This document shows, one piece after another, positions 18,295-39,419 of a DNA stretch of 40,000 nt. The DNA is taken from positions 2,148,000-2,187,999 of the forward strand of contig CAXXJJ010000001.1 in the NCBI GenBank assembly GCA_963667015.2. Reading direction: 5' to 3'. The DNA is from Desulfatiglandales bacterium (lineage in GTDB: Bacteria; Desulfobacterota; DSM-4660; Desulfatiglandales; HGW-15). Under the pieces are notes generated by a model, which did not search any database, was not told the origin of the DNA, and saw only the letters and a program-made list of their open reading frames with translations. A program made the position numbers and the translations under genes. The stretch's first letter is position 1, and each line of letters opens with the position of its first letter.

Positions 18295-19375
18295 TTAATA
18301 TTTCAATAACCTATGATATAAGCTTGTAAGCGCCATCTTTTGCTATTCTTTCACCCCGCTCTACAGAAATACTAATGTTACCTTTACTTAACTCAAATTT
18401 CTTTGCCAATATTGTATGAGAGATACCCAACTCTCTGGAAGCCCAGTAACATAAAAGACTCCTTGCTTTCACTTTCCGGATTTGACTACCCTTAGAAAGA
18501 ACCTCATCCTTGTCCATATCCAATACTTCAGCAACTCTATCTGTTATCCGGTCCAGATCATACCCTTTTCGTTTTAGCATGTATTTTCTTTCATATTCTT
18601 CTTCAGACTGTGAGATTATTGAATCCACAAAATCAGAATCACCAAGAATCCTTTCATCCCCCATTATTTTTACACCGGACTTAAACACTTCTTTTGCTTC
18701 AGTCCATCCACCAAGGCTTCTTATCAGTCCTCCTCCTGTTAATTCAGGTTTACATCCTTCCTTAATTCCTTTTTTAATAAATGAGATATATTCTTTTTGG
18801 GCGGCCTTCTTGTTTTTATCAAAATATCCAAGGATATAGTTTGTATCCTGCCACTCATACTCACCTTTACTCATCATATTTTTATGACCGCAATATTTAT
18901 AGTTTTTTAATTCAGTAAAAGTGTTAACAATTCCTGCACGAATTGGGTTAAGGTGAATATACCTTACAAGTTCAAGGAGATATGTATCTTCCTGACATAT
19001 GATTGATTTATATCGATTCTGAAACAACTGCCCCTGTCGTTTGTGTCTACGGTTAAAAGAAATTACATATCCGGTGAGTAGTCTTCTCATTAATTTGGAG
19101 AGGGGTACATTTCCTGTTCGGAAAAGAAAATGGGCGTGATTGGACATAAAAGCCCATGCATAGCAGGTTATGTGCATTTGGGGACATAATTTTTCCAGTC
19201 GGTCAATAAAGTCATTACGGTCTTTATTGCTCCAAAATATCTTTTTACCTTCAATACCCCTGATCATTACATGATGCAATACTCCGGGGGCGTCTAGTCT
19301 TGCTGTTCTTGGCATCTAATGAAAATATTAAAATTTAAAGACGCTGTCAATTAAAATATTAAACATCGTCCCTCT
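18282..19375 (-). mobile_element. RAYT / IS200-like Y1 transposase element bounded by a 22-bp perfect inverted repeat
   Basis: agagggacgatgtttaatattt (18282-18303) is the exact reverse complement of aaatattaaacatcgtccctct (19354-19375). The two bracket the transposase ORF. Confidence 0.65.
18311..19315 (-). CDS. REP-associated tyrosine (Y1, IS200-like) transposase with C-terminal DnaA-C-like HTH
   Basis: VLHHVMIRG...AWAFMSNHAHFL (HUH-type HxH)...FQNRYKS...YIHLNP blocks of the Y1_Tnp/RAYT family. The C-terminal ...ARSLLCYWASRELGISHTILAKKF... is HTH-like. Confidence 0.85.
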   Translation of the reverse strand: MPRTARLDAPGVLHHVMIRGIEGKKIFWSNKDRNDFIDRLEKLCPQMHITCYAWAFMSNHAHFLFRTGNVPLSKLMRRLLTGYVISFNRRHKRQGQLFQNRYKSIICQEDTYLLELVRYIHLNPIRAGIVNTFTELKNYKYCGHKNMMSKGEYEWQDTNYILGYFDKNKKAAQKEYISFIKKGIKEGCKPELTGGGLIRSLGGWTEAKEVFKSGVKIMGDERILGDSDFVDSIISQSEEEYERKYMLKRKGYDLDRITDRVAEVLDMDKDEVLSKGSQIRKVKARSLLCYWASRELGISHTILAKKFELSKGNISISVERGERIAKDGAYKLIS

Positions 19376-19746: not shown

Positions 19747-19811
19747 ATAACGCGCTGCATAAGCGGTTTGGCAAGTTTTTCGCCAAATCCGACTTGATGC
19801 TGATGTTAGCG
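19747..19811 (-). other. attC site (short family A)
   Basis: ATAACG cgctgcataagcggtttggcaag/tttttcgccaaatccg... GTTAGCG. Imperfect palindrome. The right core overlaps the TAA stop of ORF 19806..20354. Confidence 0.75.
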
Positions 19812-21114: not shown

Positions 21115-21141
21115 AGTATACCTACTGATACCTTATAAAAG

Positions 21142-21275
21142 AGCTAACGAAAAGCATTACAGGCCGTGCGGTGCACACCAACTTACCTTTTTAAAGGTGC
21201 GATGATACTGAGTTGGCAGATAGTTTAAAAAAGGCGAAAAAAATAGCACGGTCCTTGTAGATGCAATGGTTGGCT
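21142..21275 (-). other. attC site (family B), belongs to ORF-less cassette copy A
   Basis: CTAACG aaaagcattacaggccgtgcggtgcacacc ... agcacggtccttgtagatgcaat GGTTGGC. Confidence 0.75.
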
Positions 21276-21540
21276 GCCGCCAACCTGTTTATTTTGTTTT
21301 TGACTGCTTACTTTCAATTACTGTTTTTTAAAGATTTGATGCTTTTTGAATACTATGTTTTTTGATTCTTCTTTTTATATTGTTCTGAATTATTTTTCAA
21401 AGGAATTTCCGGGGAATGGATTTCCTTTGTTTTTTGTTACCTTTTTATTTCCAGATCAATTCTCGCGCCCTTGAGTTACATGTTATTAATAACTGCCTTT
21501 CTACTGCCACGATATTTTGTTTTTATCATTTCCCAGCACG
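21276..21540 (-). repeat. ORF-less cassette body, copy A
   Basis: T-rich on +. No ORF of 60 aa or more on either strand. Near-identical to 24708-24979 and 35861-36124 for most of its length. Confidence 0.8.
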
Positions 21541-21668
21541 CCAACGTTTGCGATAAGGAGTTGGCGGGTTAATGGTGCCGATGGTCGATAAAGTATGAAG
21601 ACCATTGATGCTACTGAATTTCAATCGGCAAGAAAAACCAGCCAATCACCTTGATTGCAGGGTTAGAA
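21539..21668 (-). other. attC site (family E)
   Basis: CCAACG tttgcgataaggagttggcgggttaatggtgccgatggtcgataaagtatgaag... GGTTAGA. Same family as 38119-38240. Confidence 0.7.
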
Positions 21669-24568: not shown

Positions 24569-24574
24569 TTATGC

Positions 24575-24707
24575 GCTTAACGAAAAGCATTACAGGCAGT
24601 GCGGTGCACACCAACTTACAATGTTAAAGGTGCGTGGATACTGAATTGCCAGATAGTTTAAAAAAGGCGAAAAAATAGCACGGTCCTTGCAGATGCAATG
24701 GTTGGCT
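24575..24707 (-). other. attC site (family B), belongs to ORF-less cassette copy B
   Basis: TTAACG aaaagcattacaggcagtgcggtgcacacc ... agcacggtccttgcagatgcaat GGTTGGC. Confidence 0.75.
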
Positions 24708-24979
24708 GCCGCCAACCTGTTTAGTTTGTTTTTGACTGCTTACTTTCAATCACTGACTTTTAAAGACTTGATGCTTTTTGAAAACTATGTTTTTTGATTC
24801 TTCTTTTTATATTGTTCTGAATTATTTTTCAAAAAAATTTCCGGGGAATGGATTTCCTTTGTTTTTTGTTACCTTTTTATTTCCAGATCAAGATCAATTC
24901 TCGCGCCCTTGAGTTACATGTTATTGGCAACTTCATTTCCGCTTCCCCTGTAATTATTTTCTTCCTTCTTTCAAGCACG
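24708..24979 (-). repeat. ORF-less cassette body, copy B
   Basis: Aligns by eye with copies A and C. Has a 6-nt gatcaa duplication and GG>AA changes in the hairpin arm. Confidence 0.8.
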
Positions 24980-25035
24980 CCAACGCCCAGTTTAACCGGC
25001 GGGCGTAGCCCGTCCTGTTGAAACTGATGTTAGTG
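24978..25035 (-). other. attC site (very short, family D relative)
   Basis: CCAACG cccagtttaaccggcgggcgtagcccgtcctgttgaaactgat GTTAGTG. About 58 bp. Confidence 0.7.
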
Positions 25036-26105: not shown

Positions 26106-26124
26106 TTTATCCCCCAAGCACCGG

Positions 26125-28424
26125 GTAGGGCAAGGGCTTCTCAGCCCCTTTCCCCCCTAAGAAACGTACGTGATAGTTTCCCATCATACGGCTCAAGCAT
26201 TTCACAAGGACGATCTTCTGGAACGCCCCGACTACGTTTCCCACTAATTAGCGTATAAAATCGCACGATTGGCTTTTGCCGTCAAGGCTGGTAATAATCG
26301 CTTCTCCTTATCATGCCTGCGTTGCCAAAAGTAACCGGCGTACTTCTTAAGGTAAGGATTAGCGTCTGCCTTGATTTTAATATGCCTTTTAATGCCCAAA
26401 TGGCCTAAGCGTAAAACGCTGTAGACTTTCTTCCCCAGCGTAGTTTTACCTACTGCGGAAAATACCCATTTTTTACCATCTACCATCCAGTACTTCTTAA
26501 CAAGCCATTTCTTTGACTTTCTTGGATGGCGTTTTCTGAGCATTCTCCATAACTGGTCATAGACATAACCGTCAATACGATAAAATGATGCTCCGGCTAC
26601 TACATGACGATGGTAGTTGCCCCAACCTCGAAGTACAGAGTTCAGTTCCTTTATCATGGCAGGCATTGGTGCACTGACGTATTTGCGGATTATTCCGCCG
26701 AGGCGTTGTATCAATGATTCTACGCCCTCTTTTGAAGGCCTTATGTGCAATGTCTTGCCGTGTTTCCGGAATGTTTGTCCCAGAAACATAAAACTGTCCC
26801 GGATATGTGTGATGGCAGTCTTTTGCTCAGAGAGATTTAATCCTCTTTCTCTTAAGAATTCTACGACCGCCGGCTTTACCTGTTTTTCTAAAAGCCTTCT
26901 GGATTTCCCTGTGATGATAAAATCATCCGCATAACGAATAAAATTTACTCTGGATCTACGCGGGACTGATTTATGTACAGCTTCTTCCAGTCCGTCCAGA
27001 ACCATATTCATTAACGTAGGGCTTATAATACCTCCCTGTGGTGTTCCTCTTCGGGTTGGATATCTTATCCCTTTTTCCACAAATCCTGCCTTCAACCACT
27101 TGGCCAGTATTTCTTTATCCATTGGGATGTTTGCCAGCATCCACTCATGCGATATGTTGTCAAAACATCCTTCAATGTCGGCTTCAAGCACCCACGTTGC
27201 GGAGTTTGGCTTGTTTAAGGCATTGAATGCCGCTCCTACTGCATCGGCACAGCTCCGCCCCTCTCTAAATCCATATGAGTTGCGGTCAGCTAATGTTTCT
27301 GCTATAGGAGCTAAAGCAAGTTTGTACAATGCCTGCATTGCCCTGTCATACATTGTAGGTATACTTAAAGGACGTTTCTTTTTACTTCTCTTTTTAGAAA
27401 TATACGTCCTTCTAAGCGGTTGAGGTCTGTAACCTCTTTTGTGCAGGCTGTTAGCAGCCTGCCATTTGGTTTTGGCGCCTTTCCATAAGATGCCGTCAAT
27501 GCCGGGTGTTTTCTTACCCTTATTAGTAGTCACTCTTTTTACTGCCAGAAGCTTGGCAGCTCTTGAGCGTGTGAGCAGATATTGTAATGATTTAACCTTA
27601 TTCCATCTGCCTTCCTGCGTAGCCTTTGCGATACGCATCTGCAGCCGTCTAACCTTTTTCCGCTCTGCTGTCCAGTCCACGCTGTTCCAGCATGCGGAGT
27701 CTGACTTCTTATCTTGGCTTTTGAGTGCACCAGCCGAAGCTGTCTTTTGCTTTCTCATCTACAACGGTTCTCCAGATTATCTCGCAAGGAAACACCAGTC
27801 GGATGTCTGCCCCCATTTCGGTATTCCTTTGACTCCTTCTACCTTTTAGGACTGCCATGTTTCATGCAGTATCCTTCCCGCTACAGGAAGGCATTTGCTT
27901 GTTCCGACCTCTCATTGCCGACCCTCCATGGGCTTGCCTTATACGGTTAGCTTGCCATGCATTGCGTGACATGGCGGACTGCCGGCTTTTCCACGTTCCG
28001 CATAATCACCTTAAATGAATAACTTAGGTGGTACCTGTACGCCGATGGCTTGTGTTCCCGCATGGGCACGTTAGAAACCCATGACCACACCACATCTATC
28101 CGCCCAGAGGGATAGATCTTCGACCTTTATCCTGAAGTCAGGAAGTTAGCTCTCGTAGGTCTAGACTTTTATGACGACGCTTAAGGTCTTTGATTAATCT
28201 CACCATATTATCCAGCCCTCGCCCTTAACCCGGTAGAGCTCCGGGATGGGTTCGCCTGTCACCATTTGAACCCGTTTCGGTACTTTGTCCACGGGGCTTC
28301 ACACTCTGTCATACGCGCAACAGCAGCATGCCCGTGTAGGGGACTGGAGGGGACGCTCCAGGTGTTGCCATGTATGGTGTAACCTCATGGTCAACACATA
28401 TGATTATGCGACATCGTGTCGCAA
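26125..28424 (-). mobile_element. group II intron (sense to the cassettes), full length
   Basis: RT/maturase ORF in domain IV. Domain V gagccgtatgatgggaaactatcacgtacgtttc is the reverse complement of 26161-26194, followed by a domain VI-like stem ending ...ccctac. The 5' end abuts the attC core as CCGTTAT|TTGCGACACG. Boundaries +/-5 nt. Confidence 0.75.
26244..27758 (-). CDS. group II intron reverse transcriptase/maturase
   Basis: 504 aa. RT blocks ...LSIPTMYDRAMQ..., ...GTPQGGIISPTL..., FIRYADDFIITG (YADD), and maturase X-like ...LRGWGNYHRH.... No HNH endonuclease tail is evident. Confidence 0.9.
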   Translation of the reverse strand: MRKQKTASAGALKSQDKKSDSACWNSVDWTAERKKVRRLQMRIAKATQEGRWNKVKSLQYLLTRSRAAKLLAVKRVTTNKGKKTPGIDGILWKGAKTKWQAANSLHKRGYRPQPLRRTYISKKRSKKKRPLSIPTMYDRAMQALYKLALAPIAETLADRNSYGFREGRSCADAVGAAFNALNKPNSATWVLEADIEGCFDNISHEWMLANIPMDKEILAKWLKAGFVEKGIRYPTRRGTPQGGIISPTLMNMVLDGLEEAVHKSVPRRSRVNFIRYADDFIITGKSRRLLEKQVKPAVVEFLRERGLNLSEQKTAITHIRDSFMFLGQTFRKHGKTLHIRPSKEGVESLIQRLGGIIRKYVSAPMPAMIKELNSVLRGWGNYHRHVVAGASFYRIDGYVYDQLWRMLRKRHPRKSKKWLVKKYWMVDGKKWVFSAVGKTTLGKKVYSVLRLGHLGIKRHIKIKADANPYLKKYAGYFWQRRHDKEKRLLPALTAKANRAILYAN

Positions 28425-28553
28425 ATAACGGTGAAGTTAAGGAGCCTGGCGGTTTTATGGCAACTAGCCTCATGCTCCCAAGATACTTGTTAATATTGAT
28501 TTTGCTCCGCTTGGCGATATAGTAGCCAGGTCACCTTGAACTATTGGTTAAGT
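28425..28553 (-). other. attC site (family B relative) immediately upstream (cassette sense) of the sense intron
   Basis: ATAACG gtgaagttaaggagcctggcgg ... ggcgatatagtagccaggtcaccttgaactattg GTTAAGT. The arms ggagcctggc / gccaggtcacc are complementary. Confidence 0.7.
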
Positions 28554-29761: not shown

Positions 29762-29776
29762 TGCGACCTCCTTTTG

Positions 29777-29841
29777 GCATAACGCCTTGCATAAGCGGTT
29801 TGGCGGCTTTTCGCCAAATCAGCTTGATGCAAATGTTATGC
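29777..29841 (-). other. attC site (family A)
   Basis: ATAACG ccttgcataagcggtttggcggcttttcgccaaatcagc... GTTATGC. Confidence 0.8.
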
Positions 29842-29846
29842 ATTTG

Positions 29847-30728
29847 TTACTTAAAAATAGCATATAGTATGATTACAATAATTAACACCCAAATTGCTGT
29901 AGCCAACCTGTTTAGTGGTTGCAAATACGACTGTAGTATCTTCAATAAATCTTGCTTTGATTTTTGTTCTGGTGTTAGTTCTTTTTTAAAAATATCTCCG
30001 TCCTCGACTTCTTCATAATTGTATTCGGAGTCTGTTTTTAGAAAATGTTGGCCAATTTTTGAAATTACATTTATCCATGAAAGGAAGCACGGTGTGGTTT
30101 CATTAATAATGAGGTCTCTAGGGTGATAATGTTCTCTGAGTGCATCATCCACTTCATATGTAAATGAAAGAAGTGAGGTACATATCTCGATAGAAGAGTT
30201 GGAATCAGCCCTAAGAGCTGAAATAAGAGATAACAATTGATCTCGTGGGATAGTTAATTCAAAATAAATTTCATCTTCTCCTGGTTTGAAGTTCATTCGG
30301 AATGCAGAACCGCGATAAAGACCTTTAGGCATTGTATTGGTTTCATCGGTGGGTGACCCAACTTTAATAGAAATGTTTGTGTCACCTGATGCATCCTCTA
30401 CAGAAAATATGTTTTCTTTTCCTTCGTCTTCAACTGCAAAATAGATATGATCTCGCATTTGGTTATCATCGACTATGCCTCTTATAGCAAGTTGCTCAGA
30501 GATATCTGCTTTTACTAGTTTTAGCGGTTTTTCGGATTTTTCATCCTCCCAGTCAATATCAGTTTCATGCACGTTACAACCAGTTACGATTTTTATATTT
30601 TTTAATGGTAGATTGATGTGGTTAATGTTCCTTCGCCATTCCAAAGGTCTGCTTCGATCTTCAGGTGGCCCGACTTCTTGAAAAACACCATCCGATACTT
30701 TCAGTAGTTTTCTATCTCTTAGTATCAA
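29847..30728 (-). CDS. cassette ORF: tail-anchored hypothetical protein
   Basis: 293 aa. TTG start with GGAGG 6 nt upstream. One C-terminal TM helix, LATAIWVLIIVIILYAIF. No family recognised. Confidence 0.6.
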   Translation of the reverse strand: MILRDRKLLKVSDGVFQEVGPPEDRSRPLEWRRNINHINLPLKNIKIVTGCNVHETDIDWEDEKSEKPLKLVKADISEQLAIRGIVDDNQMRDHIYFAVEDEGKENIFSVEDASGDTNISIKVGSPTDETNTMPKGLYRGSAFRMNFKPGEDEIYFELTIPRDQLLSLISALRADSNSSIEICTSLLSFTYEVDDALREHYHPRDLIINETTPCFLSWINVISKIGQHFLKTDSEYNYEEVEDGDIFKKELTPEQKSKQDLLKILQSYLQPLNRLATAIWVLIIVIILYAIFK

Positions 30729-30748: not shown

Positions 30749-30813
30749 GCATAACGGTGCCCTTAACATGCCGGGCGGCGTTTCATCGCCCGGTCATAGT
30801 TGAAGGGCGGGTT
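30749..30813 (-). other. attC site interrupted by two group II introns (remaining 6-7 nt at 35028-35034)
   Basis: ATAACG gtgcccttaacatgccgggcggcgtttcatcgcccggtcatagttgaagggcgGGTT | introns | ATGTCAT. Joining the flanks restores GGTTATG, the right-core form seen at other sites. Confidence 0.75.
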
Positions 30814-32922
30814 GTGTGCCGGGCTGGCCCGGCTGCTAAATGGTGATGCGGAGGTATTTTGACACAAATACACTGCAAAGTCCATATCCAGGCTGACGGA
30901 GCCGAAGGATAGTCGAGGGCAAGGGTACTGAAAGGAATATGTGCCTGAAGGAAGCCTAAGACAAAAGCGTGGGTTGACGTACAGGTATGCCCCGTACCTT
31001 AACTGGTAGAGGGCAGGCAGATTAGGCTGGGGGATGTCGGGACGAGTCCGCAACACAGGATAAAGTCCTATATCCGTTACATGGCTGAACCAAGTATATC
31101 TGACAATCGTGCGCTGAAAGTAGCCGAGGCTTACCCCGGGAGGTCCACTGCGTCTCAGAAGATCTATCGCTGTAAGCTACCGGAATATTGGGAAAACCGG
31201 TTAAAAAAAAATCCCGGCATCATTATGGCCGGGCGTCCCGGCAAATGATGAGCCTGTCCTGCAGGGCAGGGCAAACAAACAGAGGGCGCAGGCGGTAGAA
31301 ACCAATGAGTGACCAAACCGCAAGGGGAGACTATCGCGTAGTGGGAGTCAGCAGAGGGCATAATAGTTTCTGAGTACAGTCGGTACTAAGGAATAAGGCC
31401 CGAACGGTGCCACCTGTCGAATGGCAGGGGTAAATGAGAGAGGTTATTAGGAGACGAGTCTAATGAAATCATCGCGGCAGTGGAAACAACTTGAGTTGTA
31501 CTCGATAGATCCCGGCCCAAGGGCTAAAACGGATACGAGTTCCGAAGATTTTATTGCGTCGCGTCTATCCGAAAGCCCGACAGGTCAGATCCGGCTCATG
31601 GAGTCAATCTGTGAGCGGAGCAACATGAGACGCGCTATCAAGCGGGTCATCAAGAACAAGGGAGCCCCCGGTGTGGATGGTATGACCGTCAGCAAGATAG
31701 ACAGGTATTATCAAAGGCACCGGGACAAGATCGAAAAGGCCCTGCTGGAGGGAACGTATATGCCCATGCCGGTATTACAAAAGGAGATTGATAAACCGGA
31801 CGGCGGAACCCGCCTTCTCGGGATTCCTACTGTGCTGGACAGGGTGATTCAGCAGGCAGTGGCTCAGGTATTTACAAGTATCTGGGATTATACCTTTTCG
31901 GAGATGAGCTTTGGCTTCCGCCCAGAACGCTCTCAGCATGGTGCTGTTCGTCAGTACCGGGAGTATCTGAGGGCAGGGTATAAGTATGTGGTTGATATTG
32001 ATATATCCAAATTCTTTGACAGGGTAAACCATGACAGGCTAATGAGCCGTCTTGCTGCCAGGGTCAAGGATAAGAGGGTATTGAAACTAATCCGCAGGTT
32101 TCTGACATCCGGTGTAATGATCGGAGGTCTTGTAGAGCCAATGAGAGAGGGTACGCCCCAGGGCGGCCCACTTTCCCCCTTGCTCAGTAATATTGTTCTT
32201 GATGAACTGGATAAAGAGCTTGAAAAGCGTGGTCTTCGTTTTGTCCGGTATGCTGATGACTGTGTCATATTTGTCAAAAGCAAACCGGCAGCGAATCGAG
32301 TGATGAGTAGTATAACCCGGTTTATAGAAAAGAAGTTGAGATTAAAGGTGAACCGGGAAAAGAGCGCCATTAGCCTCCCATGGAAAAGTAAGTATCTGGG
32401 ATTCTGCGTAACAAACTCAAGCACGAATCCCAAGATACGTATTCATTGGAAGAGTATCAAGAGGTTTAAGGAGCGGGTAAAGGAAATTACAGCCCGCAAT
32501 AGAGGGCGCAGTATTGTGCAGGTGATCAAAGAGCTTAATGATTATATGAGAGGTTGGTGGAACTATTATGGTATTACCGAGTCCTACAACCGAATAAAGC
32601 TCTTGCCCAGTTGGATCAGGCGACGCCTTCGGGCTGTTATCTGGAAACACTGGAAGAACCGCAGAACCCGTGTAGGTGAACTCCTCAAAAGAGGAGTTAG
32701 AAAAGATGAAGCTGTTACTACAGGATGTGCCCGAAAGGGTCCATGGAGAATGAGCAGAGTTGAATGGGTTCAGTATGCACTACCTAATAAATACTTTTCA
32801 TCACTTGGGCTTGTGTTCCCCTGGAACTGATTTCTGCCTTGGATCAGCCGAACCGCGTTGTACGGACCCGTATGCTGCGTGGTGTGGGAGGGAGTAGTCG
32901 CGAGGCTACTTCCTATCCCGAT
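30814..32922 (+). mobile_element. group II intron, class C-like, copy 1 (antisense to cassettes)
   Basis: Starts GTGTGCC (GUGYG). Domain V-like helix at ~32851-32884 with CGC at the triad position. Domain VI gggagggagtag...ctacttcctAtccc has a bulged A 7 nt from the end ...cccgat. Confidence 0.8.
31463..32830 (+). CDS. group II intron reverse transcriptase/maturase (copy 1)
   Basis: 455 aa. ...LGIPTVLDRVIQQA..., GTPQGGPLSPLL, FVRYADDCVIF (YADD), and maturase block RGWWNYYG. No endonuclease domain. Confidence 0.9.
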   Translation: MKSSRQWKQLELYSIDPGPRAKTDTSSEDFIASRLSESPTGQIRLMESICERSNMRRAIKRVIKNKGAPGVDGMTVSKIDRYYQRHRDKIEKALLEGTYMPMPVLQKEIDKPDGGTRLLGIPTVLDRVIQQAVAQVFTSIWDYTFSEMSFGFRPERSQHGAVRQYREYLRAGYKYVVDIDISKFFDRVNHDRLMSRLAARVKDKRVLKLIRRFLTSGVMIGGLVEPMREGTPQGGPLSPLLSNIVLDELDKELEKRGLRFVRYADDCVIFVKSKPAANRVMSSITRFIEKKLRLKVNREKSAISLPWKSKYLGFCVTNSSTNPKIRIHWKSIKRFKERVKEITARNRGRSIVQVIKELNDYMRGWWNYYGITESYNRIKLLPSWIRRRLRAVIWKHWKNRRTRVGELLKRGVRKDEAVTTGCARKGPWRMSRVEWVQYALPNKYFSSLGLVFPWN

Positions 32923-35027
32923 GTGTGCCGGGCTGGTCCGGCTGCTAAATGGTGATGCGGAGGTATTTTGACACAAATACACTGCAAAGTCCATATCCAG
33001 GCTGACGGAGCCGAAGGATAGTCGAGGGCAAGGGTACTGAAAGGAATATGTGCCTGAAGGAAGCCTAAGACAAAAGCGTGGGTTGACGTACAGGTATGCC
33101 CCGTACCTTAACTGGTAGAGGGCAGGCAGATTAGGCTGGGGGATGTCGGGACGAGTCCGCAACACAGGATAAAGTCCTATATCCGTTACATGGCTGAACC
33201 AAGTATATCTGACAATCGTGCGCTGAAAGTAGCCGAGGCTTACCCCGGGAGGTCCATTGCGTCTCAGAAGATCTATCGCTGTAAGCTACCGGAATATCGG
33301 GAAAACCGGAAAAAAATCCCCGGCATCAAATGACCGGGCGTCCCGGCAAATGATGAGCCTGTCCTGCAGGGCAGGGTAAACAAACAGAGGGCGCAGGCGG
33401 TAGAAACCAATGAGTGATCAAACCGCAAGGGGAGACTATCGCGTAGTGGGAGTCAGCAGAGGGCATAATAGTTCCTGAGTACAGTCGGTACTAAGGAATA
33501 AGGCCCGAACGGTGCCACCTGTCGAATGGCAGGGGTAAATGAGAGAGGTTAATAGGAGACGAGTCTAATGAAATCATGGCGGCAGTGGAAACAACTTGAG
33601 TTGTACTCGATAGATCCCGGCCCAAGGGCTAAAACGGATACGAGTTCCGAAGATTTTATTGCGTCACGTTTATCCGAAAGCCCGACAGGTCAGATCCGGC
33701 TCATGGAGTCAATCTGTGAGCGGAACAACATGAGACGCGCTATCAGGCGGGTCATCAAGAACAAGGGAGCCCCCGGTGTGGACGGCATGACCGTCAGCAA
33801 GATAGTCAGGTATTATCAAAGGCACCGGGACAAGATCGAAAAGGCCCTGCTGGATGGAACATATATGCCCATGCCGGTGTTACAAAAGGAGATTGAAAAA
33901 CCGGACGGCGGAATCCGCCTTCTCGGGATTCCCACAGTACTGGACAGGGTGATTCAGCAGGCAGTGGCTCAGGTATTTACAAGTATCTGGGATTATACCT
34001 TTTCGGAGATGAGCTTTGGCTTCCGCCCAGAACGCTCCCAGCACGGTGCTGTTCGTCAGTACCGAGAGTATCTGAGGGCAGGGTATAAGTATGTGGTTGA
34101 TATTGATATATCCAAATTCTTTGACAGGGTAAATCATGACAGACTAATGAGTCGTCTTGCTACCCGGATAAAGGATAAGAGGGTATTGAAGCTCATCCGC
34201 AGGTTTCTGACATCCGGTGTAATGATTGGAGGTCTTGTAGAGCCAATGAGAGAGGGTACACCTCAAGGCGGCCCACTTTCCCCCTTGCTCAGTAATATTG
34301 TTCTTGATGAACTGGATAAAGAGCTTGAAAAGCGTGGTCTTCGTTTTGTCCGGTATGCTGATGACTGTGTCATATTTGTCAAAAGCAAACCGGCAGCGAA
34401 TCGAGTGATGAGTAGTATAACCCGGTTTATAGAAAAGAAGTTGAGATTAAAGGTGAACCGGGAAAAGAGCGCCATTAGCCTCCCATGGAAAAGTAAGTAT
34501 CTGGGATTCTGCGTAACAAACTCAAGCACGAATCCCAAGATACGTATTCATTGGAAGAGTATCAAGAGGTTTAAGGAGCGGGTAAAGGAAATTACAGCCC
34601 GCAATAGAGGGCGCAGTATTGTGCAGGTGATCAAAGAGCTTAATGATTATATGAGAGGTTGGTGGAACTATTATGGTATTACCGAGTCCTACAACCGAAT
34701 AAAGCTCTTGCCCAGTTGGATCAGGCGACGCCTTCGGGCTGTTATCTGGAAACACTGGAAGAACCGCAGAACCCGTGTAGGTGAACTCCTCAAAAGAGGA
34801 GTTAGAAAAGATGAAGCTGTTACTACCGGATGTGCCCGAAAGGGGCCATGGAGAATGAGCAGAGTTGAATGGGTTCAGTATGCACTACCTAATAAATACT
34901 TTTCATCACTTGGGCTTGTGTTCCCCTGGAACTGATTACTGCCTTGGATCAGCCGAACCGCGTTGTACGGACCCGTATGCTGCGTGGTGTGGGAGGGAGT
35001 AGTCGTGAGGCTACTTCCTATCCCGAT
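32923..35027 (+). mobile_element. group II intron, class C-like, copy 2, directly abutting copy 1
   Basis: GTGTGCC begins at the nucleotide after copy 1 ends (...cccgat|gtgtgcc). It has the same 3' end ...cccgat followed by atgtcat (the attC remainder). Confidence 0.8.
33568..34935 (+). CDS. group II intron reverse transcriptase/maturase (copy 2)
   Basis: 455 aa. Differs from copy 1 at about ten residues, all in the first ~205 aa. Confidence 0.9.
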   Translation: MKSWRQWKQLELYSIDPGPRAKTDTSSEDFIASRLSESPTGQIRLMESICERNNMRRAIRRVIKNKGAPGVDGMTVSKIVRYYQRHRDKIEKALLDGTYMPMPVLQKEIEKPDGGIRLLGIPTVLDRVIQQAVAQVFTSIWDYTFSEMSFGFRPERSQHGAVRQYREYLRAGYKYVVDIDISKFFDRVNHDRLMSRLATRIKDKRVLKLIRRFLTSGVMIGGLVEPMREGTPQGGPLSPLLSNIVLDELDKELEKRGLRFVRYADDCVIFVKSKPAANRVMSSITRFIEKKLRLKVNREKSAISLPWKSKYLGFCVTNSSTNPKIRIHWKSIKRFKERVKEITARNRGRSIVQVIKELNDYMRGWWNYYGITESYNRIKLLPSWIRRRLRAVIWKHWKNRRTRVGELLKRGVRKDEAVTTGCARKGPWRMSRVEWVQYALPNKYFSSLGLVFPWN

Positions 35028-35694
35028 ATGTCATGTCTTTGATTGTAATCATATTTCCATCATGGAATATTACAGTATCTCCAATATAGATAATCTCATT
35101 ATTATCATGAAATATTGCCGAACCATCTGTGATTGAAACGATATCATGCTCAATACCTTTGGAATATTCACTGACTTTTTCGATAAAAGATGTTTCCATA
35201 TTATTAAAGTGTGGTAAAAATTCATAATTGACAATGTTAAGGGCTTGATAATTAGAGTGATCACGTATGACTTGTTCAACTGTCTCTGTTACCAGGCGAA
35301 ATAATGAAACATTTTTTGTAAACTGCATCGATCCACCACTTGCACCCATTATCAAAAGGTCTTCAGCTATTAAATTGAGTAAACGTGACTCTAAACCAGT
35401 TTGAAGAATATTTTCCCTAAAACTTATTGGATTCCCACCTGTTAAATAAATGACATCATATTTATTAAGGTCATCTAATTGCCTTTCATCAAGATCTTCA
35501 TCAATGTCTATAAAATCCAGATTTGTAAAACCAAATGATTTAAAATGCCTTTTAGCTTTAGGAAAACGTTCATGCCCCTCTTTACTAAATGGAGGTATCC
35601 AGGCAATACGAGGATTTGTGCCTTTACTTCTGATGTGTTCTAAAATAATTTCATTTCTTGATAAAGGAAAGTCACTTGTAAGCAATAATTTCAC
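35011..35694 (-). CDS. cassette ORF: peptidase E (S51)-like / class I glutamine amidotransferase-like protein, C-terminus altered by intron insertion
   Basis: ...YDVIYLTGGNPISF... and ...IMGASGGSMQF... resemble S51 dipeptidase E blocks. The last 5 codons (YRDRK*) are read from intron sequence. Without the introns the ORF would end ...KDMT-TAA using the attC core. Confidence 0.65.
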   Translation of the reverse strand: MKLLLTSDFPLSRNEIILEHIRSKGTNPRIAWIPPFSKEGHERFPKAKRHFKSFGFTNLDFIDIDEDLDERQLDDLNKYDVIYLTGGNPISFRENILQTGLESRLLNLIAEDLLIMGASGGSMQFTKNVSLFRLVTETVEQVIRDHSNYQALNIVNYEFLPHFNNMETSFIEKVSEYSKGIEHDIVSITDGSAIFHDNNEIIYIGDTVIFHDGNMITIKDMTYRDRK

Positions 35695-35726
35695 AATTTA
35701 GCTCCAAGAATAGTTACCCTTCAATG

Positions 35727-35860
35727 ACATAACGAAAAGCATTACAGGCCGGGCGGTGCAAACCAACTTACCATGTTAAAGGTACGAGGATTCTGAGTTG
35801 GCAGATAGTTTAAAAAAGGCGAAAAAAATAGCACGGTCCTAGTAGATGCAATGGTTGGCT
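35727..35860 (-). other. attC site (family B), belongs to ORF-less cassette copy C
   Basis: ATAACG aaaagcattacaggccgggcggtgcaaacc ... agcacggtcctagtagatgcaat GGTTGGC. Confidence 0.75.
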
Positions 35861-36124
35861 GCCGCCAACCTGTTTAATTTGATTTTGACTTCTTACTTTC
35901 AATTACTGATTTTTAAAGATTTGATGCTTTTTGAATACTATGATTTTTGATTCTTCTTTTTATATTGTTCTGAATTATTTTTCAAAGGAATTTCCGGGGA
36001 ATGGATTTCCTTTGTTTTGTTACCTTTTTATTTCCAGAACATTTCTCGCGCCTTTGAGTTACTTGTTATTTGCAACTTCATTTCCGCTTCTCCTGTAATT
36101 ATTTTCTTTCTGCTTTCCAGCACG
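35861..36124 (-). repeat. ORF-less cassette body, copy C
   Basis: Aligns with copies A and B, with scattered substitutions and small indels (for example gttttttgtt > gttttgtt). Confidence 0.8.
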
Positions 36125-36254
36125 CCAACGCCCCAAATAACCAGACGGGCGGTTAATGATTATTGATACTTGCAAACATCAATTGCTTCTATGATGCACC
36201 CAACTGCGATCTGGCAAGAGAGTAGCCCGGTCTGAGTTGATTTGGATGTTAGCA
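36123..36254 (-). other. attC site (long family D)
   Basis: CCAACG ccccaaataaccagacgggcgg ... gcgatctggcaagagagtagcccggtctgagttgatttggat GTTAGCA. Confidence 0.75.
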
Positions 36255-38246: not shown

Positions 38247-38756
38247 TTATTTCCATCGATAGGGAAAACCTAGCCCACCTATGTAATAATGTTCAGATAT
38301 TTGACTACCCTCTGAAACTGAATTATAAAACTTTTTTGAACAATTCAAAGTTACTATTTCAGATGTTTTATTATCCCGAACTTCTATGTGGTAGCTCCAG
38401 CGTCTCCCTTTGCTGATCCATTTACTTTCAATTGGACCTTCATATACTATTTCTTCTCCATTGCCTGTAAAAGCATTAATTGCCATTACGTATGGCCAAG
38501 TCATCAATAGAGTTAAAGCATAAAATAAAATGGCTACAAACCATGTAGTAACCTTTTTTTTGTTAACACTATATAAAAATTTGCGGTTTATCCATGTATA
38601 CCCGAAAATAATTACTGCAAGAGGCACAAATAAGATTCGTACAGAATAGTCAAATCCGCCATTAAAAATTGATTCAAGCCTCAACAATAAAAATAACGAA
38701 ATGCCGATGTATATAAAAAATAAAATGTTACCGTAACGATAAATTAAATCATTCAT
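38247..38756 (-). CDS. cassette ORF: membrane protein with soluble C-terminal domain
   Basis: 169 aa. Three or four hydrophobic helices followed by a ~70-aa hydrophilic tail. Confidence 0.55.
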   Translation of the reverse strand: MNDLIYRYGNILFFIYIGISLFLLLRLESIFNGGFDYSVRILFVPLAVIIFGYTWINRKFLYSVNKKKVTTWFVAILFYALTLLMTWPYVMAINAFTGNGEEIVYEGPIESKWISKGRRWSYHIEVRDNKTSEIVTLNCSKKFYNSVSEGSQISEHYYIGGLGFPYRWK

Positions 38757-38758
38757 AG

Positions 38759-38825
38759 CTCTAACGTACCGCTCACCAGAGAGGGCCGCTCTTTGGCCCG
38801 AATCTGGTGAAGCGGAAGGTTATGC
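38759..38825 (-). other. attC site (short family C relative)
   Basis: CTAACG taccgctcaccagagagggccgctctttggcccgaatctggtgaagcggaag GTTATGC. Confidence 0.75.
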
Positions 38826-39419
38826 TTGCCTTTGTTCATAGTTTTCTGGGAACATCGCTCTTTCAACCAATTCTATAAGTAAGTGAACCACTTTGATATG
38901 GAGTTCTTGGACACGATCTGCATACTCACCAGCTGGAGTGCATATTTCAATATCCGCAATTTCACCTAAAGGCGATCCGTTGCGCCCCGTGAGACCAATG
39001 ACTTTTATATCATTTTTCTTTGCATACTCAGCTGCTAAAATGACATTGCGGCTGGTTCCACTCGTGCTGATTGCTAAAAGGACATCCCCCTTCTTTGCAT
39101 GAGCTTCAAGATATCTTGAAAATATTTTGCTGTAGCCATAATCATTACCGACACAACTAATATGTCCTGAGTCACTTATAGCAGATGCAGGCAGTGCCTT
39201 TCGATCAAGCCTGTAACGCCCTGAAAGCTCTTCGGCAAAGTGTATTGCATCACACATAGATCCACCATTTCCACAGCTAAATGCTCGTCCTCCGTTAGAA
39301 AAACATTCTACAAGAGCCTTCCCTGCATTTGATACAGCCGAAATTGCCTTTTTATTTTTTAAGAATGAATCTAAGGCGGTCGCTGCATCACGAAGAGTTT
39401 TTTTGACTATATTTTCCAT
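38820..39419 (-). CDS. gmhA: cassette ORF: SIS-domain D-sedoheptulose-7-phosphate isomerase
   Basis: 199 aa. ...FSCGNGGSMCDAIHFAEEL..., ...LLAISTSGTSRNV... and ...QELHIKVVHLL... are the GmhA/phosphoheptose isomerase blocks. Confidence 0.85.
   Translation of the reverse strand: MENIVKKTLRDAATALDSFLKNKKAISAVSNAGKALVECFSNGGRAFSCGNGGSMCDAIHFAEELSGRYRLDRKALPASAISDSGHISCVGNDYGYSKIFSRYLEAHAKKGDVLLAISTSGTSRNVILAAEYAKKNDIKVIGLTGRNGSPLGEIADIEICTPAGEYADRVQELHIKVVHLLIELVERAMFPENYEQRQA

Follow-up and report, generated by a model that had tools for sequence, protein, structure and literature searches.

Two complete group II introns were found inserted head to tail in a single attC site, antisense to the gene cassettes, in a 40,000-nt stretch from a Desulfatiglandales bacterium (contig CAXXJJ010000001.1, positions 2,148,000 to 2,187,999; the whole stretch is called the window here, and positions are counted from its first letter). 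Their reverse transcriptases (RTs) and ribozymes assign both copies to class C (IIC), and the target requirements of their relatives suggest that the second intron to arrive, copy 1, was probably re-inserted upstream of the resident copy 2. Head-to-tail re-insertion, lately shown in the laboratory for an intron of class IIB1, appears to have happened in nature many times among IIC introns. Both copies are apparently functional. What is said below on splicing, mobility, and insertion order is inferred from sequence.

The interrupted attC site and its introns

Direct reading and alignment confirmed the coordinates of two full introns on the plus strand (2109 and 2105 nt), both with GUGUG starts and no spacer between them, as described in the initial annotation (Table 1). 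The junction of copy 1 and copy 2 reads CCCGAT/GTGTGCC (a slash marks an intron boundary throughout), with 0 nt in between. The copies had also been called diverged; the differences are real, with 47 substitutions and 4 gap columns making 51 differing positions in the alignment, but at 97.6% identity the divergence is only mild (2.4%). Each copy encodes an RT/maturase with a YADD motif (RYADDC in both) and without an endonuclease (En) domain, again as first described, since RVT_1 (residues 109 to 314) and GIIM (residues 332 to 404) are the sole Pfam matches in the RTs (5e-42 and 1e-19, respectively, for the copy 1 open reading frame [ORF]). The RTs of copy 1 and copy 2 (RT1 and RT2) differ at 9 residues.

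From about 19.7 kb to its end, the window is an integron-type cassette array of short minus-strand ORFs; an imperfect inverted repeat (…YTAAC…GTTAKGC) comes after every ORF, and an attC site lies in every gap between the ORFs. These sites were read directly from the intergenic gaps; two automatic scans, for complementary R boxes and for a fully closed hairpin, were too strict and gave 3 sites each. The introns occupy the attC that follows the Peptidase_S51 ORF and lie on the plus strand, which is the attC bottom strand, antisense to the minus-strand cassettes. Their flanks are …GTTGAAGGGCGGGTT on the 5' side and ATGTCAT on the 3' side. Joined, the flanks (30749 to 30813 and 35028 to 35034) read GCATAAC…GGGTT/ATGT, in which GTTATGT resembles the GTTATGC of neighboring attC sites. 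The earlier claim that rejoining restores a GGTTATG core like that of the other sites therefore holds for the sequence (GGTT/ATGT), and it holds for the fold as well: as single-stranded DNA the joined site forms a bulged attC bottom-strand hairpin of -22.4 kcal/mol (z, -5.3), compared with -21.4 kcal/mol for the attC at 29772 to 29848 and -21.6 kcal/mol for that at 38756 to 38830. The restored attC is indistinguishable in folding from its neighbors.

The former TAA stop codon of the Peptidase_S51 cassette spanned the insertion site. Uninterrupted, the minus strand reads …ATG ACA TAA; with the introns in place it reads …ATG ACA TAT CGG GAT AGG AAG TAG, and the protein now ends …KDMT-YRDRK. The loss of the stop codon and the gain of five intron-derived codons, both noted in the initial annotation, are thus evident from direct reading.

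The class C assignment rests on both the RT and the ribozyme. Among RTs of solved structure, the best bit score was obtained with GsI-IIC (444), ahead of the Eubacterium and Roseburia IIC RTs (E.r./R.i.; 360 and 290), LtrA (IIA; 145), and TeI4h (chloroplast-like [CL]; 135), and the alignment with GsI-IIC runs from end to end. A neighbor-joining tree of 39 RTs (413 columns, 200 bootstraps), two of them non-C, separates the class C-like RTs from those two with 100% bootstrap support. Both window RTs fall into a 17-member clade, likewise with 100% support, whose other members come from Desulfatiglandales and other Desulfobacterota-type metagenome-assembled genomes (MAGs); the closest relatives, in Desulfatiglandales and other Desulfobacterota MAGs, share 86% amino acid identity. 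The top matches to the RT on enterobacterial plasmids (H16, H21, and H36), which were included as tree taxa, are ordinary class C introns outside integrons.

In a class C lineage known as the IIC-attC introns, insertion is into the attC bottom strand, with the intron facing against cassette transcription; the member S.ma.I2 separates aadB from its attC (PMC3001079). RTs of this lineage have been found to be monophyletic with 100% bootstrap support (Léon et al. 2010, PMC3001079). Kl.pn.I3, the sole reference IIC-attC RT in our tree, groups with the window clade at less than 35% bootstrap and lies at a distance of 0.83, versus 0.75 for GsI-IIC. On this tree the RT clade of the window introns is distinct (100% bootstrap) and has no supported link to Kl.pn.I3.

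In the ribozyme, domain V (DV) has CGC at the catalytic triad position, a 3-bp upper helix, and a 4-nt loop, which is the IIC architecture of the O. iheyensis intron. The hallmarks listed in the initial annotation, namely the GUGUG start, CGC in DV, and a bulged A in domain VI (DVI) 7 nt from the 3' end, are borne out by direct reading, folding, and covariation. When the DV/DVI structure was laid over 18 family sequences, 96.7% of cells were paired and 12 pairs, 7 of them in DVI, showed compensatory changes; this covariation was reached by 0 of 500 shuffles, and slid controls gave 44 to 57%. The Rfam model of group II domain I (DI), RF02001, scored above its gathering score on both copies (30927 to 31130 and 33036 to 33239). 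At relaxed thresholds RF01998 matched both copies (in copy 1 at 31316 to 31400) with 28 to 32 bits in the window and 36 bits in the related intron L002, and RF00029 (DV/DVI) matched copy 2 only (34956 to 35027), with 31.3 bits against a cut-off of 40. On reference class C introns, Kl.pn.I3 among them (RF02001, 134 bits), all three models score above their gathering thresholds. Compared with Kl.pn.I3 and the other IIC references, the window-intron family has an extra 29-nt hairpin in DI, a longer domain II (DII) region, and much lower Rfam scores, RF02001 reaching only 52 to 66 bits in the family (52 in the window versus about 135 for reference IIC introns). The RT score against GsI-IIC, the CGC triad, the DV/DVI covariation, and the Rfam class C trio all argue for the class C identity proposed at the outset, and the two checks proposed along with it, an RT phylogeny and a search for a foldable ribozyme core, came out in its favor: the tree of 39 RTs places the window RTs with class C, and the core is represented by the DV/DVI fold, its 12 compensatory pairs, and the RF02001 matches.

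Target recognition and order of insertion

Intron ends extracted from related loci gave 25 independent non-tandem 5' flanks and 29 3' flanks. Every one of the 25 5' flanks ends in GTT, mostly TGTT, and the first base of the 3' flank is A in 22 cases, C in 3, and G in 4. The upstream flanks of these relatives are attC-like (for example, cTAACgccttgcataagcggtttg…caaatcggcttgatgcaaatGTT/ATAAG), most of them lying in attC-like inverted repeats, and their empty sites reconstruct as GTTA(T/G)…, which is complementary to the R'' core. The manner in which these relatives from Desulfobacterota MAGs are placed in attC sites is thus that of the window introns. One Desulfatiglandales MAG contig (CAXXPR010000002.1; 6.48 Mb; loci L002-L008 and L014) holds at least 12 near-identical related introns, which stand singly in successive attC sites; L002 has three intron copies within 8 kb, and no tandem was present in the fetched flanks of L002-L008 and L014.

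Exon-binding site 1 (EBS1) of the window introns, AACA, lies in the loop GCAACACA, which is invariant in the family and coincides with the hairpin that holds EBS1 in Rfam's IIC model of domain I. It is complementary to the UGUU of the family's 5' flanks (intron-binding site 1 [IBS1]), and the counterpart in Kl.pn.I3 is ACAA, with the flank UUGU. EBS3 was assigned to the fourth letter of GUAUAU, a U that aligns with A223 of the O. iheyensis intron. Covariation of this position with IBS3 supports the assignment: the pair is U and A in most family members, C and G in L001, and A and U in both Kl.pn.I3 and O. iheyensis (A223). In the latter intron, A223 is EBS3 and pairs with U+1 (PMC3669008). A natural single insertion in which IBS3 is G and EBS3 is U was found at locus L022.

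Public metagenome contigs were scanned for the 21-mer junction CTATCCCGAT/GTGTGCCGGGC. The scan found this precise junction in 77 of them, many anchored in unique flank on one side, and the description of the tandem as unusual was in this respect overstated. Neighboring copies could be compared in 36 contigs; they were identical in 8 and clearly diverged in 14, and in the remaining 14 the partner was another type of element or a fragment. EBS3 is U in 13 of the 13 upstream copies with a recognizable EBS1/EBS3 motif in tandem contigs. The junction …CCCGAT/GTGTGCC… is also contained in a MAG contig of 2252 nt (L017) whose first 127 nt recur at its end. Some partners lack an ORF (L112, L125, L128, and L135) and are mini-introns of about 650 to 990 nt mixed with full-length copies; L150 is a twintron, with an intron of another structural type (RF02005) about 100 nt into the IIC intron, and L101 is a relic.

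An isolate contig of Fredinandcohnia quinoae (Bacillaceae; L030, 1 to 3804) carries two 1900-nt class C units that meet at CTACTCGAT/GTGCGCC and are 99.8% identical, at a coverage of 403x; tandem IIC copies are therefore not confined to attC-targeting lineages. A possible published precedent is a Shewanella putrefaciens intron, whose 5' exon is given as a "second group II intron" (Table 3 of PMC3001079). No description of natural head-to-tail IIC-attC pairs was found in the literature searched, which covers the field in part.

For EcKTE56.groEL, a IIB1 intron, E. coli assays have shown that tandem copies arise at its target, the groEL stop codon, when the U of EBS3 forms a wobble pair with the resident intron's first G as IBS3, and that the new copy goes upstream (PMC12584367, Mob DNA 2025). 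A similar course is probable for the window pair. The intron ribonucleoprotein would recognize the single-stranded attC hairpin and reverse-splice into the DNA, where it would be copied by the En-less RT. This first insertion would leave the hairpin and IBS1 (GGUU) intact and would replace the A of IBS3 by the first G of the intron; the U of EBS3 could form a wobble pair with that G, so that the occupied site could be targeted again. Another copy, slightly different in sequence (the present copy 1), would then enter upstream of the resident (the present copy 2) and create the CCCGAT/GTGTG junction, and later sequence exchange between the copies would homogenize their 3' third.

Both orders of insertion yield the same final sequence, and for EBS3 states, flank matches, and neighbor identity in the tandem contigs they predict nearly the same patterns. 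The sole point in these sequences that is informative on the order is that IBS1 is uniform (GTT in 25 of 25) whereas IBS3 varies (22 A, 3 C, and 4 G). Upstream re-insertion is favored because IBS1 is strict and IBS3 is loose, 7 of the 29 3' flanks not beginning with A; because the 5' determinants survive a first insertion; because a U·G wobble is possible and has a natural case in L022; and because the route has been demonstrated for EcKTE56.groEL (PMC12584367).

Several observations weigh against this account. At the occupied site IBS1 is GGUU, which forms 3 pairs and a G·A mismatch with EBS1, whereas perfect TGTT/A ends stand empty at no fewer than 9 attC sites of the same array. Pairing strength by itself does not account for the re-use of the GGTT/A site, and the double occupancy of this weaker site may reflect local re-insertion, chance, or the acquisition of a pre-formed pair. 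In the metagenome array L085, the upstream one of two neighboring copies has G in place of the EBS3 U, and given this case the U·G wobble is helpful, not obligatory. The position of EBS3 was mapped through an O. iheyensis sequence that was checked only against published residue numbers (it reproduces the numbering of C358-G359-C360 and of A287). Finally, the lower helix of DV contains a U·U mismatch in both copies (32859/32876 and 34964/34981), beside a U·G wobble, at positions where most relatives have A-U or U-A and C-G, respectively. Because both copies share it, the mismatch is presumably compatible with mobility.

The initial annotation had proposed the opposite order, in which copy 1 came first and copy 2 entered at the 3' end of copy 1, the DVI hairpin and CCCGAT standing in for a 5' exon and the native A serving as IBS3. 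In its favor, insertion of IIC introns requires a hairpin ahead of the site, and DVI is a stable hairpin that ends 3 nt before the junction; the A at IBS3 would be a perfect match to the U of EBS3, and L085 shows that G at the EBS3 position does not bar a copy from the upstream place. Against this, EBS1 AACA pairs at only 2 of the 4 positions of CGAU and is mismatched at position -2, which is T in all 25 independent 5' flanks, GAT being found at tandem junctions alone. As DNA, moreover, the DVI region gives only a weak fold (-10.3 kcal/mol; z, -1.4) in comparison with the attC (-22.4 kcal/mol), and the documented experimental route puts the new copy upstream (PMC12584367). We consider this order unlikely; the reverse fits the evidence better, and the order first proposed is probably to be turned around.

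The differences between the copies bear on whether there were two insertions at all. Within the ORFs, 24 differences are synonymous and 10 are non-synonymous (9 amino acid changes), and derived states are divided 25/20 between the copies. The synonymous excess and the split of derived states speak for two separate insertions, by two lineages that diverged while selection maintained the RT, rather than for a duplication that then decayed. Most differences fall into one region: 31148 to 32161 differs by 4.1%, and the first 334 nt and the last 761 nt (32162 to 32922) differ by 0.3 to 0.5%. A stretch of about 560 nt within the 3' part has no differences, which is not mere conservation because copy 1 differs there from the nearest outgroup, L002, at 82 positions; homogenization of the 3' part, by exchange between adjacent copies (gene conversion) or through a recombinant donor, is likely. 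As to whether RT1 and RT2 trace to separate sublineages, both sets of states at the 9 variable RT residues occur among the metagenome relatives, and the two RTs are equidistant from these relatives.

It is highly doubtful that the pair arose without retrohoming, either by tandem duplication (slippage or unequal exchange) and subsequent divergence or as an assembly artifact that stacked two strain variants. The near identity of the 3' thirds would fit such an origin, and some junction contigs have the terminal overlaps typical of circularized repeat assemblies; the junction, however, matches the intron termini to the base, with a flanking microhomology of only 1 nt, and 51 differences with about 2.4 synonymous changes per non-synonymous change are not those of neutral in-place decay. 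An assembled junction k-mer must also exist in reads, and it was assembled in 77 independent contigs, many of them flank-anchored and many with diverged neighbors. It is very improbable that the pair is a decaying, immobile relic, no longer functional and with no ongoing mechanism, as might be read from the U·U mismatch in DV of both copies, the perfect target sites left empty nearby, and the low Rfam score, since both 455-aa ORFs are intact and bear a signature of purifying selection, EBS1, EBS3, the DV triad, and the branch-point A of DVI are intact in both copies, and the DV variant, present in both copies, cannot have prevented at least two insertions.

Relation to known introns

Described members of the IIC-attC lineage are S.ma.I2, E.c.I7, Kl.pn.I1 and Kl.pn.I3, G.s.I1, and N.e.I1 (PMC3001079; Léon, Quiroga, Centrón, and Roy, 2008-2010). 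The initial annotation had likened the window introns to S.ma.I2, which lies antisense in attC, and the strand, the R'' box, and the orientation are indeed the same (PMC3001079). As a reference we read Kl.pn.I3 directly in the attC of the blaIMP-4 cassette on plasmid NZ_KX711879. Like the IIC-attC introns, the window pair has an En-less class C RT and a IIC ribozyme, lies in the attC bottom strand in antisense orientation, and, by its insertion into the complement of the R'' core, separates the cassette gene from its attC. The exact position differs: the window introns cut GTT/A, whereas Kl.pn.I3 cuts …TTTGT/T…, 1 nt upstream in the same R'' box. Since EBS1 and EBS3 change to match (AACA and U in the window introns, ACAA and A in Kl.pn.I3), this register shift of 1 nt appears to be encoded in the ribozyme.

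A further difference concerns outward promoters. Kl.pn.I3 carries the published P1out (TTGCCA-N17-TTTAAT), whereas the window introns keep just a TTGCCC -35-like box; a promoter scan found no sigma-70-like site on the minus strand of the 5' 650 nt (DI/DII), and direct reading shows no -10 element at 16 to 18 nt from TTGCCC. Two published IIC-attC members likewise have no predicted outward promoter (PMC3001079), and an outward promoter (P1out/P2out) is not strictly defining for the lineage. The window site also differs from those of known IIC-attC introns in holding two copies. Judged by its sequence features, the window element works like an IIC-attC intron, while a shared RT clade is without support in the tree; it is a new clade or a variant of attC-targeting IIC introns.

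The pair resembles the EcKTE56.groEL case in that two copies stand head to tail at one homing site, with the 3' end of one abutting the 5' G of the other, EBS3 is U, and the occupied site would still be a target. EcKTE56.groEL, in contrast, is a IIB1 intron that recognizes the groEL stop codon through EBS1, EBS2, and EBS3, whereas the window pair is IIC, is directed to an attC hairpin and 3 to 4 nt, and is known from sequence. Unlike in the EcKTE56.groEL case, the window copies have diverged (by 2.4%). With the O. iheyensis ribozyme the window introns share the CGC triad, the 3-bp upper helix of DV, the placement of EBS1 in the homologous loop, and the placement of EBS3 at the A223 position; EBS3 is A in the O. 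iheyensis intron and in GsI-IIC and U in the window introns. The O. iheyensis and GsI-IIC introns target sites after transcription terminators rather than attC sites, and the O. iheyensis intron has no ORF.

In Methanosarcina acetivorans, repeated site-specific homing has produced multi-intron clusters in noncoding DNA, with a perpetual homing site, that were remodeled by recombination (PMC4424553). Those clusters are nested twintrons, with one intron within another, in contrast to the strictly head-to-tail window copies, between which the exons have zero length. A possible link to circularly permuted group II introns was also considered and rejected, as PMC8637638 gives no support for a tandem origin.

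The findings extend attC homing to a separate clade of introns, found in chromosomal integrons of Desulfobacterota type, with a register shifted by 1 nt that would be explained by the changes in EBS1 and EBS3. To our knowledge, no retroelements other than IIC-attC introns home specifically into the recombination sites of integrons, and a part in the expression and even the origin of cassettes has been proposed for these introns. Such a pair of introns would put one attC out of action, lengthen a cassette protein at its end, place 4.2 kb of antisense structured DNA between cassettes, and break short-read assemblies; the general picture of group II introns is unchanged by it. More tentatively, and in our estimation with slightly less than an even chance of being right, attC-targeting IIC introns (and probably IIC introns generally) might regenerate their homing site with each insertion, the hairpin and IBS1 being retained and the first G of the intron taking the place of IBS3, so that occupied sites would be preferred landing pads and would accumulate mixed head-to-tail arrays of full-length, ORF-less, and diverged copies that exchange sequence. 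If this is true, the 77 contigs, the Bacillaceae pair L030, and a doubly filled weak site beside at least 9 empty perfect ones would be traces of a widespread natural behavior that has so far been shown only in a laboratory assay of one IIB1 intron.

The cassette array

For the cassettes, the insertion would have several consequences. Five residues would be added to the peptidase. The R'' half of the attC is parted from the rest by 4.2 kb, which should hinder IntI-mediated excision of the peptidase cassette, and transcripts from this cassette into the next ones would have to cross 4.2 kb of antisense intron, so that read-through should suffer. S.ma.I2 has been found to block read-through from Pc (PMC3001079). 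A terminator-like hairpin with a T-run is present on the minus (cassette) strand of copy 2 only (33338 to 33319), the copy 1 counterpart differing by indels, and could stop transcripts running in the cassette direction.

Table 1. Coordinates of the intron pair, its target site, and other features of the array (positions within the window)
Feature	Position	Strand	Remarks
5' part of attC bottom strand, Peptidase_S51 cassette (GCATAAC…GGGTT)	30749-30813	+	Inverted repeat; 5' exon; IBS1 = GGUU at 30810-30813
Intron copy 1, full group IIC intron	30814-32922	+	2109 nt; GTGTGCC start, CCCGAT end
EBS1 (AACA), copy 1	31052-31055	+	In loop GCAACACA, 31050-31057
EBS3 (U), copy 1	31097	+	Aligned with O. 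iheyensis A223
RT/maturase ORF, copy 1	31463-32830	+	455 aa; YADD; no En domain
Domain V, copy 1	32852-32883	+	CGC triad at 32854-32856; fold, RF00029-type alignment, covariation
Domain VI, copy 1	32886-32919	+	Bulged branch-point A at 32915, 7 nt after; GCGA loop
Intron copy 2, full group IIC intron, probably the earlier arrival	32923-35027	+	2105 nt; GTGTGCC start, CCCGAT end
EBS1 equivalent, copy 2	33161-33164	+	
EBS3 equivalent, copy 2	33206	+	
RT/maturase ORF, copy 2	33568-34935	+	455 aa; YADD; no En domain
Domain V, copy 2	34957-34988	+	CGC triad at 34959-34961
Domain VI, copy 2	34991-35024	+	Bulged branch-point A at 35020, 7 nt after
3' exon, remainder of complement of attC R'' core (ATGTCAT)	35028-35034	+	IBS3 = A at 35028
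Peptidase_S51 cassette ORF	35011-35694	-	Former TAA stop spanned insertion site; end now intron-derived YRDRK
Empty TGTT/A attC ends	Near 19800, 20495, 22693, 24080, 29043, 29838, 37455, 38240, 39565		Direct reading of gaps
Repeated stretch of ~400 nt (three repeats)	21138-21433 + 21450-21559; 24570-24865 + 24888-24997; 35723-36018 + 36033-36142		

The left 17 kb of the window contains ordinary metabolic and transport genes. No integrase was found within the 40-kb window; given the orientation of the cassettes, it would sit beyond 40 kb.

A third group II intron, of another class, lies in the array at 26120 to 28422 on the minus strand, in the same orientation as the cassettes, with an RT ORF at 26244 to 27758. 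Its RT is closest to that of TeI4h, of the chloroplast-like class (533 bits), and has an RVT_N domain and no En domain; Rfam matches are RF02012 at 28221 to 28362 and RF00029 at 26120 to 26196. The intron starts directly after the attC R' core GTTATTT (28423 to 28429), and its sequence there is TTGCGAC, not GTGCGAC. Few reports exist of CL-class introns in integrons (PMC7923331, PMC9229058).

At the left edge of the cassette array, an ORF for an IS200-like Y1 transposase (Pfam Y1_Tnp, 334 aa) is located at 18311 to 19315 on the minus strand; an IS200/605 element adjoining an attC cluster has been recorded previously (PMC7923331). The array also contains three versions, 75 to 95% identical, of a sequence of about 400 nt that has no long ORF; each lies beside an attC-like repeat, and they may be repeated ORF-less cassettes.

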